This document shows positions 14,748 through 20,826 of a stretch of 24,885 bases of DNA, piece by piece. The notes beneath the pieces were generated by a model. That model searched no databases. It was not told the DNA's origin and saw only the letters and a list, made by a program, of their open reading frames with translations. The DNA comes from a virus: the UHGV virus genome UHGV-1445333; one strand, 5' to 3'. Position 1 is the stretch's first letter, and each line of letters starts with the position of its first letter. Both the position numbers and the translations under genes were made by a program.

Positions 14748-16628
14748 TTAATACTCCGTCACGTTTTCCTGTCGCCACGCCTCGTCATATTCCGATTTCG
14801 GCATATTGGCGATGTAGCTATATGGCGATCCTGATTCAAGTTGCAGGAACTGGTGCGATTGCTCGTCAAGGAACAACGGGACACCACCTTCCCAACCTTC
14901 GCCGTTACGTTGTTTTTCAAGCATCAAAACAGATGCCGGAGATGCCAGTAGCTGTTCGTCCTTCTCTGACATCTTTTCACCACTCTGAACTCTCTGTAAC
15001 GCTCTCTCGCGAGCCTTGTTACGCCAGATGATGAAAAGGTTGTCTGTCAGGTCTGTTATCGCTCCAGAGCCTTTTACGTCCATTTTCCCGGTTGGTTTTT
15101 CTTCGCTGTCACCTTTTCGCGAGTGAGTAACGAGAATGACGTGGGAGTTTGTTTTGTTTTTGAAATCGCAAATCGAGTCAACAAACGCCTTCTGCCCGTT
15201 ATAGTCATCGTCGCCTATGCCACATTTCATCAGGCTGTCGATGATGAATAACTGGATGCCGTATCGGCGGCGAGCGTAGTCGAATATTTCGATCAGCCTG
15301 TCGGCTTTCGCCGTTCCGGTCAGGCCAAACACCCAAAGTCTTTCGTCATAAAATTTAAATGCAGAGTCAATTTCCAGCACTGGCGGCATCTTGCAGCACG
15401 TCGCCTGACGGGTAAGGCGCTTAAGGAGAATACCAGGCTTCAGCTCAAGTGACGCGATGCACGTCTTCACACCCTGACGCATTGCCTCAAGTGCCATATG
15501 CCCGACAACCTCCGTTTTTCCGTGACCGTTCACACCATTGACCAGCGTCAACTCTGCCTCACGGAACTGGAATTTATCTGCCAGAGATTCCCACGGTGGA
15601 TTAAACAGATACTGCTGCTTGCCGTAGAAAGCGTTGATAGTGTCCTGGTAAAACTCTCGCGCACTGTAGAGTTCTTCAGGATCGAAGTAGGATGCCGTGC
15701 CGATGTACTGCCAGATTTCATCCTCGGTAACACCGTTCATCAGGCATTCGTTGATGTCTTTGTACGGCAGAGTAACAAGACGGCAACGATGTTCACCGAG
15801 TCGGCTTGCGATTTCCCTTGCGGCTTCACGACCAACATCATCAACGTCCATCGAGATGAATATTTCCTCAAACCTGTCGAGGTTGTGGTACTCAAACTCA
15901 ATCCACTGTTGCTTAGCGCCTTTCCCGCCACCAAACGGCACGGATAACGCCGAGATGCCGTATTGCGCATAGCTCATACAATCAATTTCGCCTTCGCAAA
16001 GTACAACCGCCCTCACGCCAGCGTCCAGAGCCTGCCATCCGAACAGACAAGGTTCGCAATCACCTTCTGCCATAATGACTTTCTTCCCGTCCGGGCGCTC
16101 AGTGCTGATTCGCTTGACCTGCAACAACTCACCATCGCGTTTGTACGGAAGCACCAGTGCATCAAGTTCTCGTTCTCCATTCCACACCTTGCCGCTGACA
16201 ACCTCGTAGCGCTTTACGACTTCTGGCGATATGCCACGCGATTGCAGGTACTCAAGATGGGATTCTGTTCTGGTAACGTAGCGGGCGATTTTCTTGCGGT
16301 CAGGTCTGGAGAATTTCTTCTCACGTCTGGCATCGAAATGGTGATCGTCATCCTTGATTCCGAGAAAGGCTTTCGCTTCCTGCATAGCCTGATGCAGGTT
16401 AATTCCACGACATGCCATCCACAAATCAAGCATGTCACCGCCGTCTCCCTCAGCGAAATCAGCCCATTTTTTCTTGCCGCTAAGGTTGACCTTAAGGCTG
16501 TTTCCCTTGTCACCGTTGACGTTACCGGCAACCCACTCATGCCCCTCTTTCTTGCCATTTGGCAACAGGTGCGGAGCCACCCTGTCAACCTGCGCCCAAA
16601 GCAGGTCGCTAAGTTCACTTGGCCTCAT
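14748..16628 (-). CDS. Bifunctional DNA primase (TOPRIM) / DnaB-family replicative helicase, 626 aa
   Basis: TOPRIM-like acidic motif (VVLCEGEIDCMSYAQYG) in the middle; Walker A (NGVNGHGKTE) and Walker B-like (LFIIDSL) in the C-terminal half; follows the O-like initiator in place of lambda P. Confidence 0.85.
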   Translation of the reverse strand: MRPSELSDLLWAQVDRVAPHLLPNGKKEGHEWVAGNVNGDKGNSLKVNLSGKKKWADFAEGDGGDMLDLWMACRGINLHQAMQEAKAFLGIKDDDHHFDARREKKFSRPDRKKIARYVTRTESHLEYLQSRGISPEVVKRYEVVSGKVWNGERELDALVLPYKRDGELLQVKRISTERPDGKKVIMAEGDCEPCLFGWQALDAGVRAVVLCEGEIDCMSYAQYGISALSVPFGGGKGAKQQWIEFEYHNLDRFEEIFISMDVDDVGREAAREIASRLGEHRCRLVTLPYKDINECLMNGVTEDEIWQYIGTASYFDPEELYSAREFYQDTINAFYGKQQYLFNPPWESLADKFQFREAELTLVNGVNGHGKTEVVGHMALEAMRQGVKTCIASLELKPGILLKRLTRQATCCKMPPVLEIDSAFKFYDERLWVFGLTGTAKADRLIEIFDYARRRYGIQLFIIDSLMKCGIGDDDYNGQKAFVDSICDFKNKTNSHVILVTHSRKGDSEEKPTGKMDVKGSGAITDLTDNLFIIWRNKARERALQRVQSGEKMSEKDEQLLASPASVLMLEKQRNGEGWEGGVPLFLDEQSHQFLQLESGSPYSYIANMPKSEYDEAWRQENVTEY

Positions 16629-17769: not shown

Positions 17770-18048
17770 TCAGGCCTCGAAGAATTCGCCGTTCTTCGGG
17801 GCTTTTTCTTTTGTCAGCATTCTGGCTACTTTCTTAGCCAGTTCCGCCAACTCCTCGTCTTCAACACCCCATTCAAGAACAGCCAGAAGCATTCCCATTT
17901 TTGGGATAAAGCTGTCTTTCCATCGCGAAATTTGCGATTCATTGATCCCTAATGCATCAGCAACCTTTCGCTGACCACGTACAGCAATTCGATTCAGGAT
18001 GTTGCTTGTAATTGCATTCGCTTTCTTGCGAGTACTTGTAAGTTCCAT
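17770..18048 (-). CDS. cII: CII transcriptional activator, 92 aa
   Basis: Track ORF trimmed to ATG 18048; upstream TAAGGAAATACTTACAT matches the lambda cII leader I recall; SQISRWK...[13 protein letters not shown] core matches lambda CII. Confidence 0.85.
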
Positions 18049-18107
18049 ATGTAAGTATTTCCTTAACAAATAAGAAGTTATGCGCATCAACTTATGCGCG
18101 TTGTATT

Positions 18108-18150
18108 CCCGCATTTCGGCGGGAATGAGGACCATGACTGTTAAAGAGCG
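18108..18150 (-). promoter_or_regulatory. nutR (boxA CGCTCTTTAACA + boxB hairpin)
   Basis: Minus strand: boxA CGCTCTTTAACA (18150-18139) and boxB CCCGC-CGAAAT-GCGGG (18123-18108), between cro and cII; boxB is identical to the one at nutL. Confidence 0.65.
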
Positions 18151-18156
18151 GTGTTA

Positions 18157-18351
18157 CTATTTGTTTTTCTTGTTGCTTGGGAAAGGACGAACTTCCTCTC
18201 CAATCACACTGCCATCAGGCTTTACCGTAACCATAATGTTACGGCCTGCCAGAATGGCCTTGCTGATAGCGCACTGGATTACACCAAAGTCACTGGCTGC
18301 TTTAGCCTGTCCATGGATTTTGGCGTAATCGGCAAGTGTCATTCGAATCAT
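18157..18351 (-). CDS. cro: Cro repressor, 64 aa
   Basis: Product [37 protein letters not shown]...PFPSNKK aligns with lambda Cro ([38 protein letters not shown]...); start at ATG 18351 with SD GGAGAG; the track ORF began at an upstream GTG. Confidence 0.85.
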
Positions 18352-18380
18352 ATGCACTCTCCGTTATTAACCATGAACAA

Positions 18381-18451
18381 AGAATACTACAGGTATTCAA
18401 AGCAATCAATACTTAGGGTATTTTTAGTTTAAGTACCTTAGCTATTAGAAT
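18381..18451. promoter_or_regulatory. Right operator region OR with divergent pR and pRM
   Basis: Three 15-bp sites AATAC-N5-GTATT (18383-18397, 18408-18422; weaker 18432-18446) centred about 24-25 bp apart; pR on minus strand TTGATT-17-TATTCT flanking the first site; pRM on plus strand with -10 TAGAAT 7 nt before the cI ATG (leaderless, as in lambda). Confidence 0.6.
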
Positions 18452-18457
18452 TAAGCT

Positions 18458-19174
18458 ATGGAAAATAAAAAATCACTGACGACAGAACAGCTGGAAGACG
18501 CTAAGCGGCTTAAGGCTTTGTATGAGTCAAAAAAGAAAGAATTGGGAATAACCCAATACTCAATCGCTGATGAACTGGGTATCACCCAAGGAGCGGTAGG
18601 GCATTATCTTAATGGCAGAAATGCGCTAAACGTTGAGGTTGCATCTGGTTTTGCACGATTGTTGCAAGTCTCAATTGCTGATTTTAGCCAGTCAATTGCT
18701 GCCAAGGTTGCAGAACAGGCAGAAAGCCTTAAGAGCGATGCCAACGTAAGGTATGCAGGGGAATACAGAGCAGGAAAGAGGTATCCGGTGTTAAGCAGTA
18801 TCCAGGCTGGCTCGTGGTGTGAAGCATGCGAACCATACACCATTAAAGACATAGATGTTTGGCTTGAGTCTGACGCGCATATTCAAGGTAATGCGTTCTG
18901 GCTTAAAGTGGAAGGTGATTCAATGACGGCACCGGTTGGGTTAAGCATTCCAGAGGGAACATTCGTTCTTTTCGATACCGGAAGGGAGGCGATCAACGGC
19001 AGCTTGGTCATAGCAAAACTTTCTGACTCTAACGAAGCAACATTCAAGAAGCTGATAATCGACGGCGGAAATAAATACCTCAAGGGACTTAATCCTGCAT
19101 GGCCTCTCGTGCCAATCAATGGAAACTGCAAGATTATAGGCGTTGCAATTGAGACAAAACTCAGACTGGTTTGA
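18458..19174 (+). CDS. cI: CI repressor (HTH plus S24 LexA-like autocleavage domain), 238 aa
   Basis: N-terminal block LTTEQLEDAKRLKALYESKKKELG parallels lambda CI; Ala-Gly cleavage site (SIQAGSW), catalytic Ser in GDSM and Lys in FKKL; no SD, consistent with a leaderless pRM transcript. Confidence 0.9.
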   Translation: MENKKSLTTEQLEDAKRLKALYESKKKELGITQYSIADELGITQGAVGHYLNGRNALNVEVASGFARLLQVSIADFSQSIAAKVAEQAESLKSDANVRYAGEYRAGKRYPVLSSIQAGSWCEACEPYTIKDIDVWLESDAHIQGNAFWLKVEGDSMTAPVGLSIPEGTFVLFDTGREAINGSLVIAKLSDSNEATFKKLIIDGGNKYLKGLNPAWPLVPINGNCKIIGVAIETKLRLV

Positions 19175-19192
19175 TCACGCAAGGGGGCGCTT

Positions 19193-19561
19193 ATGGTTGG
19201 AACCGCTATAGCAAGCTTTTTTGGGATGTTGGCAATCTCGACAATTTACGGCTTAGCGCATGCTTTTATTGCGAAATCTCTATCAGAAAAAATAAGCCAG
19301 GCTTGGGCGCATAGATCAGCTCGTTTCATGATTCTGGTGATCATAGCAATACAAGGGATATCTGCATTTATCCTCTATGGATCAAGCTTATACCTATTGT
19401 ATCAAGGCGCGACATTTACGCCTTACACCAGTGATTACGGAACTCTATACGATGGTAGTGAAGACATCACTGTGGCTTGGATCGTCTTTGGTTTATCTAT
19501 GGCCGTGTCTGTTGTAGCAGACATCATTAAGGTAATTCTCGTCTTAACCTTCGCTGACTAA
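19193..19561 (+). CDS. Membrane protein (3 predicted TM helices), 122 aa, directly downstream of cI
   Basis: Strong SD AAGGGGG 5 nt before ATG; 18-nt gap after cI, same strand, no intervening promoter seen; three hydrophobic segments; occupies the lambda rexA/rexB position. Confidence 0.6.
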   Translation: MVGTAIASFFGMLAISTIYGLAHAFIAKSLSEKISQAWAHRSARFMILVIIAIQGISAFILYGSSLYLLYQGATFTPYTSDYGTLYDGSEDITVAWIVFGLSMAVSVVADIIKVILVLTFAD

Positions 19562-19692
19562 CCTATAATCCCGGCAGCAATAGCTATCGGGATCCACTTC
19601 ACATATCCCGCATAAAAAGCACTGAACAAGCAGACACCGAAAAAATAAATATCCTTTGTATTCATTTGCTTATCATTATTTCATCAAAAATA

Positions 19693-19734
19693 AATACCTT
19701 GGGTATTTACACAATAAAATACCTACAGTATTCT
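19693..19734 (+). promoter_or_regulatory. Left operator OL with pL
   Basis: Two operator sites of the OR family: AATACCTTGGGTATT (19693-19707) and AATACCTACAGTATT (19718-19732); pL -35 TTTACA (19706-19711), 17-bp spacer, -10 TATTCT (19729-19734), directed towards N. Confidence 0.6.
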
Positions 19735-19779
19735 TTAGCCATCAGCAGGACGCTGGAAGCCAAACGGAACAGATTGGCA

Positions 19780-19820
19780 GGCTCTTTAACATTGATGGGA
19801 TTGTCCCGCCGAAATGCGGG
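19780..19820 (+). promoter_or_regulatory. nutL (boxA GGCTCTTTAACA + boxB hairpin)
   Basis: BoxA-like GCTCTTTAACA at 19781-19791 and boxB CCCGC-CGAAAT-GCGGG at 19805-19820, about 40 nt downstream of the pL start and upstream of N. Confidence 0.65.
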
Positions 19821-19928
19821 AACCAAAGAGTAGTTGGCTTTGGGGTGACGTGAAGTGCAGCTGCACGACGGCAACCGGAAGATAAGCACCCGGCGCGTCA
19901 CCGCCAAAGTCAATCATCGGAGGTCAAC

Positions 19929-20234
19929 ATGACAGTAGTCATTACATATCTGGCTGAGGATAACGCCAGAAATCGCCGCAGAGCACGCAGACAGGCTCAA
20001 CGTGAACAGGCAATGCAAGAGCAGCGACTGGCGCGAAAAATTGCGCTAAAGCTCTCTGGTTGCGTCAGAGCAGACAAAGCAGCATCACTCGGAAGCCTTC
20101 GCTGCAAGAAGGCAGAAGAAGTCGAGCGTAAACAGAACCGTATTTACTACCGCAAGCCACGCAGTGAAATGGGTGTGACTTGTGTTGGTCGCCAGAAACA
20201 ACGCGGAAAATCAATTCCAGCTTATTACGATTGA
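19929..20234 (+). CDS. N: N-type antitermination protein, 101 aa
   Basis: First pL gene after nutL; N-terminal arginine-rich motif (NARNRRRARRQAQREQAM) like lambdoid N proteins; SD GGAGG 5 nt before ATG. Confidence 0.75.
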   Translation: MTVVITYLAEDNARNRRRARRQAQREQAMQEQRLARKIALKLSGCVRADKAASLGSLRCKKAEEVERKQNRIYYRKPRSEMGVTCVGRQKQRGKSIPAYYD

Positions 20235-20239
20235 GGTTA

Positions 20240-20509
20240 ATGATGAAGTTCAAATTGAACGATGAAGTTAAATGGTCAAGTTCATCAAACGGTGTAACGA
20301 AGGTAAAAATCGGGTTTATCGTCGAGGTGATTCCTCCTGGTGTCAACGTAAAAAAATTCGAACTAGGTCGTCTGCTAGATGCACCTGGCCTTCCGAGGAA
20401 AGAAGAGAGCTATATAGTTTGTGTAGGTCCAAGACCCGGATCTCGTGCCAAGCCAAAATATTACTGGCCGCGAGTTAATAACCTGCGTCGCTTACACGAT
20501 GACAAATAG
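20240..20509 (+). CDS. Hypothetical protein, 89 aa
   Basis: Track ORF 20180-20509 trimmed to ATG at 20240 (tandem ATG ATG, 5 nt after the N stop) with SD GAGG; no motif recognised. Confidence 0.5.
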   Translation: MMKFKLNDEVKWSSSSNGVTKVKIGFIVEVIPPGVNVKKFELGRLLDAPGLPRKEESYIVCVGPRPGSRAKPKYYWPRVNNLRRLHDDK

Positions 20510-20564: not shown

Positions 20565-20642
20565 ATGGAAGAAGAATTTGAAGAGCATCCTCAGGATGTG
20601 ATGGAACAATACCAGGACTATCCTTATGACTACGACTATTGA
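20565..20642 (+). CDS. Possible 25-aa acidic, Tyr-rich micro-ORF
   Basis: Read by hand: ATG at 20565 with SD GAGG (6-nt spacer); product MEEEFEEHPQDVMEQYQDYPYDYDY; overlaps the ral start by 17 nt. Confidence 0.3.
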   Translation: MEEEFEEHPQDVMEQYQDYPYDYDY

Positions 20643-20826
20643 TAAAAATCAATGGTGTGGACAATTCAAACGATGCAATGGATGCAAGCTGCAATCGGAA
20701 TGTATGGTTAAGCCTGAAGAAATGTTTCCTGTAATGGAAGATGGGAAATATGTCGATAAATGGGCAATACGAACGACGGCAATGATTGCCAGAGAACTTG
20801 GTAAACTGAACAACAAGGCTGCCTGA
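20626..20826 (+). CDS. ral: Ral-like restriction-alleviation protein, 66 aa
   Basis: 66-aa product MTTTIDKNQWCGQFKRCNGCKLQSECMVKPEE... matches my recollection of lambda Ral in sequence, size and position (pL operon distal to N). Confidence 0.55.
   Translation: MTTTIDKNQWCGQFKRCNGCKLQSECMVKPEEMFPVMEDGKYVDKWAIRTTAMIARELGKLNNKAA

Follow-up and report, generated by a model that had tools for sequence, protein, structure and literature searches.

What does the gene that directly follows the cI repressor gene encode in a 24,885-nucleotide stretch of the viral genome UHGV-1445333 (here called the window), and what might its product do? The initial annotation had placed at positions 19193-19561 a 122-residue protein with three transmembrane (TM) helices, in the slot that holds rexA and rexB in phage lambda, and had proposed it as a candidate superinfection-exclusion or abortive-infection gene. 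The open reading frame (ORF) was recovered with the same coordinates, start and stop; it lies on the plus strand, begins with ATG, has 122 codons and ends with TAA. This ORF, together with its match to PHROG 6534, its hydropathy, an AlphaFold2 model and its conservation, defines hkaS, a gene for a predicted inner-membrane protein. Our tentative answer is that hkaS may be an accessory gene of the immunity cassette that is co-transcribed with cI and whose product would be an inner-membrane protein of the superinfection-exclusion (Sie) type. The anatomical part of this explanation, taken alone, is very probably correct.

The gene is already catalogued in several phage records, including that of HK620, of which the earlier reader was unaware. 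The HK620 record names the gene hkaS and gives its product as 'unknown' (AAK28867). The window protein, HkaS, is 99% identical to that of HK620 and 100% identical to the mEpX2 protein (mEpX2_043). Its match to PHROG 6534, a family of unknown function, has an E value of 2.4e-79 and aligns residues 1-122 with profile positions 1-122. The same gene is present in HK620, mEpX2, HK630 (as 'HkaS protein'), HK140, HF4s, phi296/phi367 and the Stx2c phages Stx2_5044 and Stx2_EH1904. These copies are mostly 97-100% identical (91% in HF4s) and occupy the same slot between cI and the left operators (OL) with the promoter pL. In the phage records other than those of HK620 and HK630 the product is labelled hypothetical. 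A literature search on HK620, hkaS and mEpX2 found no study of hkaS function, the matches to 'hkaS' being swamped by a herbarium acronym.

A tblastn search located hkaS in 16 phage records. Among them are P22-like podoviruses, siphoviruses (HK630, HK140 and, from the Hendrixvirinae, mEpX2) and Stx phages with short tails, of the Sepvirinae; it is thus the immunity cassette, and not the type of virion, that the gene goes with. The window genome is itself a P22-like mosaic, with vB_EcoP-611R6 (56% covered) and HK620 (54% covered) as its best matches at ~97-98% identity. The 1.55 kb stretch from the right operators (OR) to the N gene is 99% identical to its counterparts in HK620, mEpX2, HK630 and a number of further E. 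coli phages, and ~98.7-99% identical to those in HK140, vB_EcoP-611R6 and two Stx2c-converting phages. A word-indexed search of 5.8 billion proteins returned 12 clusters, whose full-length members reach as low as 52% identity and whose source names all read 'hypothetical'. The carriers belong to five genera of Enterobacterales, namely Escherichia, Salmonella, Enterobacter, Klebsiella (K. aerogenes) and Hafnia, and the exact window protein occurs in at least 1000 contigs. Of 5426 complete genomes of E. coli, 146 (2.7%) contain hkaS DNA, at 147 places that are all chromosomal; these carriers come from the gut, from food animals and from clinical material. The DNA of cI was likewise found in 146 of the 5426 at 147 places; the totals agree, the genome lists having not been matched one by one. 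A scan of GTDB representative genomes gave no confirmed hkaS locus, and gene context was drawn from IMG/VR and from look-ups of the exact protein.

The repressor gene, which would be the first on the immunity transcript, lies at 18458-19174 on the plus strand and encodes 238 residues with the Pfam domains HTH_3 (8e-10) and Peptidase_S24 (5e-24). It is annotated as cI in HK620 and its product is at least 99% identical to the cI proteins of mEpX2 and HK630. The spacer between cI and hkaS (19175-19192, plus strand) has exactly the 18 nucleotides first reported, and the strong Shine-Dalgarno sequence that had been claimed for it is present as AAGGGGG at 19181-19187, ending 5 nucleotides ahead of the hkaS ATG on the same strand as cI. 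The G run of this site varies; it is GGGGG in the window, and HK620 has one G fewer and a gap of 17 nucleotides. Three further lineages were represented by the diverged loci L084-L091 (Salmonella-type P0010, Klebsiella-type P0012 and Hafnia-type P0005), which make four lineages with the window. In these three the spacer measures 17-20 nucleotides, each with AAGGA 7-8 nucleotides before the ATG.

No promoter had been seen between the two genes, and none was called on the plus strand between the cI start and hkaS by a consensus scan, which is crude and leaves a weak promoter inside cI possible. The 18-nucleotide gap has no room for a promoter. The sole plus-strand match in 18300-20000 is pL, at 19706-19734. 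The cI promoter pRM would have its -10 hexamer, TAGAAT, at 18446-18451, and the cI mRNA would start at or next to the ATG, as in lambda; the pRM hexamers were read by eye and score under the threshold of the promoter scan. A second promoter, pRE, is annotated in HK620 upstream, inside cII and directed through cI. Downstream, a stem-loop on the plus strand begins 7 nucleotides past the hkaS stop (19568-19593; RNA fold -14.1 kcal/mol, z -2.4). Counterparts that are unrelated in sequence lie in the corresponding place at L084 (~5381-5421), L088 (~5383-5412) and L090 (~1832-1859), with z of -3.3, -1.8 and -3.8. In none of the four lineages does the stem-loop carry a U tract, and it was not called by the terminator scan. 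It may mark the 3' end of a cI-hkaS transcript or stabilise that transcript, and is not a canonical intrinsic terminator. No RNA family of Rfam matched within 18300-20300.

Related phages provide the precedent for such an operon. In phage 434, reverse-transcription PCR shows a pRM transcript running through hex (PMC3564112). In BTP1 a cI-bstA operon was seen by RNA sequencing, and the slot between cI and N is a common, mosaic moron site (bioRxiv 10.1101/787010). That genes in this slot are typically prophage accessory functions, as the initial annotation stated, agrees with the literature: rexAB, 434 hex and 933W stk are lysogen-expressed accessory genes after cI (PMC3564112), to which bstA is added (bioRxiv 10.1101/787010). 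Anatomy and precedent together give good support to the view that hkaS would be co-transcribed with cI.

The surroundings of hkaS correspond to the lambda immunity region in opposite orientation, and form an immunity cassette of the HK620 type with the order cro-OR-cI-hkaS-OL. The cI gene is divergent from cro (18157-18357, minus strand; Pfam Cro, 4e-26), cII, O and the primase/helicase gene, and in both the window and HK620 hkaS is the sole ORF between cI and OL. The gene does occupy the place that is equivalent to the lambda rexA/rexB slot. All the diverged homologues that were examined, down to 52% identity, lie 17-20 nucleotides past an HTH_3 and S24 repressor and upstream of N. The same position, between cI and OL/N, is found in HK620, mEpX2, phi296 and 79 of the 80 related IMG/VR loci. 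The N proteins differ between the lineages, with 24-38% identity and membership of different families, and the replication modules are of DnaB type, lambda-P type or primase/helicase type. The divergence of N and of the replication genes points to frequent recombination just outside the cassette. The unbroken linkage of cI and hkaS would follow from the enclosure of hkaS between cI and the OL sites matched to that cI, and functional coupling is not needed to explain it.

The slot itself is open to exchange. The same place is taken by hex in phage 434 and by rexA-rexB in lambda. In Enterobacter phage BHUENT3 (L095:1441-2886) the C-terminal domain of cI is very similar to that of the window's cI and has the same last residues, with a different DNA-binding domain, and after cI come two unrelated genes, one for a 127-residue protein with CxxC pairs (phrog_4293) and one for a 109-residue protein with a C-terminal TM segment (phrog_6136). 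BHUENT3 thus has a mosaic junction right at the cI stop. The idea of a compositionally foreign moron found no support, the G+C fraction of hkaS being 0.43-0.44, like that of its neighbours.

The conservation of hkaS shows that it is a real and selectively maintained gene. All 80 related loci in IMG/VR have an intact ORF; between them they hold 24 protein alleles that differ mostly by conservative changes. The full-length members of the family have 122 residues, save for a few alternative starts and truncated or frameshifted variants. Among the database variants, P0001 is a TTG-extended call, and P0006, P0007 and P0009 have a frameshifted N terminus in which a +1-frame peptide replaces TM1; variants of the latter type are rare alleles or assembly errors. 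An alignment of seven sequences, whose members are 52-97% identical to the window protein, has 43 invariant columns. The invariant blocks are KISQAW.H..ARF, YLLY..TF, W96, D110, K113 and ILVLTFAD. The first of these, as the motif KISQAWAHRxARF, belongs to the basic cytoplasmic loop, and the invariant pair D110/K113 lies inside TM3. By position, the cytoplasmic loop (9 of 17 invariant) and the end of TM3 are the most conserved parts, and the periplasmic loop is the least (4 of 23).

Selection was measured on the pair formed by the window and the Hafnia-type locus, in which the synonymous sites are unsaturated. For hkaS the number of synonymous substitutions per synonymous site (dS) is 0.69 and the ratio of the nonsynonymous counterpart to it (dN/dS) is 0.135; for cI the values are 0.725 and 0.033. 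The matching dS indicates that cI and hkaS diverged jointly over a long time. Wherever dS is measurable (0.7-1.6) the dN/dS of hkaS is 0.13-0.20. In the more distant lineages the synonymous sites of both genes are saturated, and dN is 0.27-0.44 for hkaS against ~0.08 for cI. In the same cassettes cI is 86-96% identical and HkaS 52-83%. Thus hkaS is under purifying selection, with a protein that evolves at about four times the rate of cI. Among E. coli genomes, at 99% identity or more, a 551-nucleotide stretch of hkaS with its flanks was recovered from 36 genomes and cI from 142, so the hkaS stretch is the more polymorphic. The variable periplasmic loop and this polymorphism fit a surface that tracks changing partners.

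The three TM helices that had been predicted were seen both in hydropathy and in a structure model. Kyte-Doolittle profiles with windows of 19 residues have three peaks, at ~1-27 (1.5-1.7), 43-70 (to 2.3) and 94-121 (to 2.3), and the AlphaFold2 model has three long helices. On the plus strand, hydropathy assigns TM1 to residues 2-27 (19196-19273), TM2 to residues 45-70 (19325-19402) and TM3 to residues 94-121 (19472-19555). The first loop, residues 28-44 (19274-19324), has four K/R and one E, and the second, residues 71-93 (19403-19471), has no K/R and four D/E. With a basic first loop and an acidic second loop, the positive-inside rule predicts a periplasmic N terminus and a cytoplasmic C terminus, so that, by hydropathy and charges, the first loop would be cytoplasmic and the second periplasmic. 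The AlphaFold2 model, made from the seven-sequence family alignment, has a mean predicted local distance difference test score (pLDDT) of 92.1 and a predicted template modelling score (pTM) of 0.79. Its helices span residues 2-29, 31-38 (a short one in the cytoplasmic loop), 41-73 and 89-121, and the periplasmic loop contains a small hairpin. The protein ends in LTFAD, with no charged or basic tail.

Homology and fold searches found no relative of known function. In Pfam nothing was above threshold, the top noise being Cation_ATPase_C with 17.6 bits where 27.3 are required, and neither NCBIfam nor a sequence search of the PDB gave an HkaS match. Among 1.84 billion representatives, a profile hidden Markov model picked up nothing beyond the family's own 50%-identity cluster and a 44-residue fragment. 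Such a profile check had been suggested at the outset, with a clear match to a housekeeping membrane-protein family as the outcome that would speak against an exclusion gene; no host membrane-protein family was matched. In fold searches there was no match in BFVD at E <= 0.001, and nothing in the PDB below E 0.5 by Foldseek. The family profile was also compared by hhalign with single candidates. The probability was 0.7% with lambda RexB, in line with the earlier remark that no similarity to RexB could be seen, 0.3% with P22 SieA, 0.1% with 434 Hex (L093:2427-2828) and 0.16% with the window's own holin (phrog_126). As far as these sequence comparisons reach, the HkaS family is an orphan.

The function that we tentatively favour combines these features. 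Transcription would cover cI and hkaS together, starting at pRM in the lysogen and at pRE while lysogeny is being established, and hkaS would be translated from its own Shine-Dalgarno sequence. The product would be a three-helix inner-membrane protein with the predicted topology of a periplasmic N terminus and a cytoplasmic C terminus. HkaS is almost all membrane, and a sensing or enzymatic domain would hardly fit into its two loops, of 17 and 23 residues; most likely it would act on some component of the inner membrane, by occupying it or by interfering with it. It may block the genome entry of incoming phages in the manner of SieA, without killing the cell. The variable acidic periplasmic loop would then be the part that faces the phage, while the conserved cytoplasmic loop and D110/K113 could serve folding, oligomerisation or the binding of a partner. 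A block of the Sie type is preferred because the best-documented proteins of the HkaS type are superinfection-exclusion proteins.

Several observations weigh against this assignment. The slot, the literature precedents and the operon anatomy support the original proposal in part, and the reading as an exclusion or abortive-infection gene draws on this position and on the analogy with small membrane proteins of prophages; the part that did not hold up is a tie to any known exclusion or defence family. The defence models of PADLOC-DB 2.0 gave 0 families at E <= 1, the hhalign probabilities with RexB, SieA and Hex are each below 1%, none of the PHROG matches is annotated as exclusion, and the fold searches returned generic helical bundles only. 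Second, hkaS is carried by P22-like, siphoviral and short-tailed Stx virions, which implies that its target would not be tied to the injection machinery of its carrier. Third, the complete linkage to cI is explained structurally, by enclosure. Fourth, the faster evolution of HkaS may merely reflect a weaker constraint on transmembrane residues.

Other functions can be proposed for a membrane protein in this place. HkaS could be a factor in lysogeny control, which stabilises the lysogen like Hex or biases the choice between lysis and lysogeny, for example through the degradation of cII by FtsH/HflKC, with expression from pRE and then from pRM. The unbroken tie to one cI lineage with equal synonymous divergence would suit such a role, but the position of hkaS between cI and OL explains that linkage structurally. 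Hex lowers spontaneous induction from the same slot (PMC3564112), yet HkaS has no homology to Hex; lambda Rex has also been proposed to aid the transition from lysogeny to lysis (bioRxiv 10.1101/2021.04.19.439022). The most conserved part of HkaS is the cytoplasmic loop with its short amphipathic helix, and pRE of HK620 is placed to read through both cI and hkaS; however, the cytoplasmic part amounts to only ~17 residues. This role is unlikely.

A lysogenic-conversion factor would benefit the lysogen directly by changing the physiology of the host, such as its tolerance of envelope stress or its transport. The expression expected in the lysogen suits this equally well as the other readings, hkaS is widespread in E. 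coli sources and in five genera of Enterobacterales, and the lambda prophage expresses lom and bor, which are accessory genes outside defence (bioRxiv 10.1101/787010). HkaS nevertheless has no similarity to host membrane families, only its own family having been found among the 1.84 billion representatives, and hkaS was found only beside phage repressors. We regard a conversion factor as unlikely.

An abortive-infection effector would be a latent protein that permeabilises or depolarises the membrane, similar to RexB or a holin, so that infection triggers death or arrest before phage is released. HkaS shares the slot of rexB and is polytopic, and invariant charged or polar residues in the bilayer (D110, K113 and Q54) would suit the conductance pathway of an oligomer. 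Class I holins are usually described as proteins of three helices whose N terminus lies outside and whose C terminus lies inside, and the predicted topology of HkaS is the same. The effector would lack a sensor partner, however, since no second gene lies with hkaS between cI and OL and RexB needs RexA, and loops as short as 17 and 23 residues could scarcely house a sensing domain. In addition HkaS has three helices and not four, is homologous neither to RexB nor to the window's own holin, and has no charged C-terminal tail, ending as it does in LTFAD. These features make an abortive-infection effector unlikely.

More speculatively, HkaS might not be a defence protein but an input, embedded in the membrane, to the genetic switch of this one cI lineage, for instance one that couples the state of the envelope or FtsH/HflKC to establishment or induction. 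An input of this kind would explain why hkaS has kept to a single type of repressor across five genera, even as synonymous divergence reached saturation, in a slot that is described as highly mosaic and that was found here to hold unrelated genes behind a related cI; it is a long shot. Finally, a non-functional passenger that persists merely through its enclosure between cI and OL, for which one could cite that no function has been assigned to hkaS so far and that rare frameshifted or N-terminally altered alleles occur (P0006, P0007, P0009), is very unlikely and scarcely credible given an ORF intact at 80 of 80 loci, a dN/dS of 0.13-0.20 at dS 0.7-1.6, and exactly 122 residues with invariant motifs across four lineages whose synonymous sites are saturated.

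An accessory gene after cI is expected and in itself not surprising. If HkaS is an exclusion or defence protein, it adds a single-gene, 122-residue membrane family that is a sequence orphan to the known prophage barriers, and it could shape which phages, including therapeutic and Stx phages, enter the strains that carry it. If it has no anti-phage phenotype, the finding is merely a better description of a known hypothetical gene. In either case hkaS is a tractable test case, as one small gene with the model phages HK620, mEpX2 and HK630 and with established assays of the SieA type.

The operators that enclose the cassette were located by the palindrome AATACnnnnnGTATT. On the cro side of cI it occurs at 18383-18397 (OR1), 18408-18422 (OR2) and 18432-18446 (OR3), with 0, 0 and 2 mismatches, within 18383-18446; these sites coincide with OR1-3 as annotated in HK620. 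On the other side, within 19648-19732, matches lie at 19648-19662, 19693-19707 (OL2) and 19718-19732 (OL1), with 1, 0 and 0 mismatches. The promoter pL (19706-19734) is promoter-like, with TTTACA and TATTCT separated by 17 nucleotides, and OL2, OL1 and pL are also annotated in HK620. The operator palindromes are recognisably kept in all the lineages compared. The best candidate for a third left operator, AATATCCTTTGTATT at 19648-19662, has 1 mismatch and is present in all lineages; it is 45 nucleotides from OL2, against ~25 nucleotides between the others. The HK620 record places OL3 at the equivalent of 19670-19686 and a terminator, 'tIMM', at 19643-19673, where no hairpin was seen. Two matches with 2 mismatches fall inside hkaS (19348-19362 and 19389-19403); about 10 such matches are expected by chance in the window, and these are probably meaningless.

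The window has several further features. A hydrophobic minus-strand ORF of 35 residues (MNTKDIYFFGVCLFSAFYAGYVKWIPIAIAAGIIG) at 19558-19665 is convergent with hkaS, whose stop it overlaps. This ORF is unlikely to be a gene; in ~20 of 80 close relatives it is frameshifted at its A/T run, and the diverged lineages lack it. The pL operon starts with the gene for the N antiterminator (19929-20234, plus strand; PHROG 271, N-like, E 4.5e-36, and annotated as N in HK620), where the slot has its far boundary, and a homologue of ral (restriction alleviation) lies in the same operon at 20626-20826 on the plus strand. The mechanically called cII ORF (17770-18135, minus strand) has 121 residues and its Phage_CII match begins at residue 30; cII of HK620 has 92 residues, and the true start is probably an internal ATG. 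A 626-residue ORF at 14748-16628 on the minus strand has the size and position of the Toprim/AAA_25 primase-helicase of locus L086, where HK620 has a DnaB-like P. This replication ORF and ral are ordinary lambdoid mosaicism.

How does HkaS compare with known systems? BstA is a DNA-binding abortive-infection protein and Stk a tyrosine kinase, both larger than HkaS and soluble. HkaS differs from them as a small membrane protein. The operon logic is shared, in that BstA of BTP1 and Stk of 933W are each encoded by a defence gene directly after cI and co-transcribed with it (bioRxiv 10.1101/787010; PMC3564112).

The lambda and 434 proteins come from the same slot. RexB acts with RexA in an abortive-infection system that is co-transcribed with cI and that excludes T4 rII mutants through depolarisation of the membrane. 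RexB and HkaS have the same place and strand relative to cI and OL; RexB is a small polytopic inner-membrane protein and HkaS is predicted to be one, with expression in the lysogen presumed for HkaS. RexB is usually described as a four-helix protein, unlike HkaS with its three predicted helices. The lambda slot holds rexA and rexB, whereas that of HkaS holds one gene without a RexA-like partner. Hex of phage 434 is the best-documented single extra gene on a pRM transcript, and it lies, like hkaS, directly past a related S24 repressor; it excludes P22, stabilises the lysogen and lowers spontaneous induction (PMC3564112). On re-annotation Hex has 134 residues, a signal-peptide-like N terminus and no further hydrophobic segment as judged by eye, no hydropathy scan having been run. 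The product of 434 hex (L093:2427-2831) begins with MIRIAALLSILLTTSANSEC, which resembles a Sec signal peptide and points to a location in the envelope. Such a location is unexpected for a protein that is reported to block the RecA-stimulated cleavage of repressor (PMC3564112).

The third comparison is with SieA of P22 (types A-C), an inner-membrane superinfection-exclusion protein with three predicted TM helices that blocks the ejection-protein conduit's assembly or its function and hence the delivery of DNA (PMC10883804). The two genes differ in setting. In P22, sieA has a promoter of its own and is placed between genes 16 and 9, and hkaS is a gene of the immunity region, behind cI; SieA occurs in P22-like prophages only, whereas hkaS accompanies its cassette into siphoviruses and Stx phages. 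All the phage-borne sieA genes found in that study were in Salmonella phages, so that HK620, a phage of E. coli, was not one of its carriers (PMC10883804). The SieA motif FxRYPxEAxxFNK (PMC10883804) is absent from the 122 residues of HkaS. As predicted proteins the two are nonetheless alike, since HkaS, like SieA, would be a small prophage-encoded protein of the inner membrane that spans it three times and lacks a soluble domain, and SieA is the closest functional model for HkaS.

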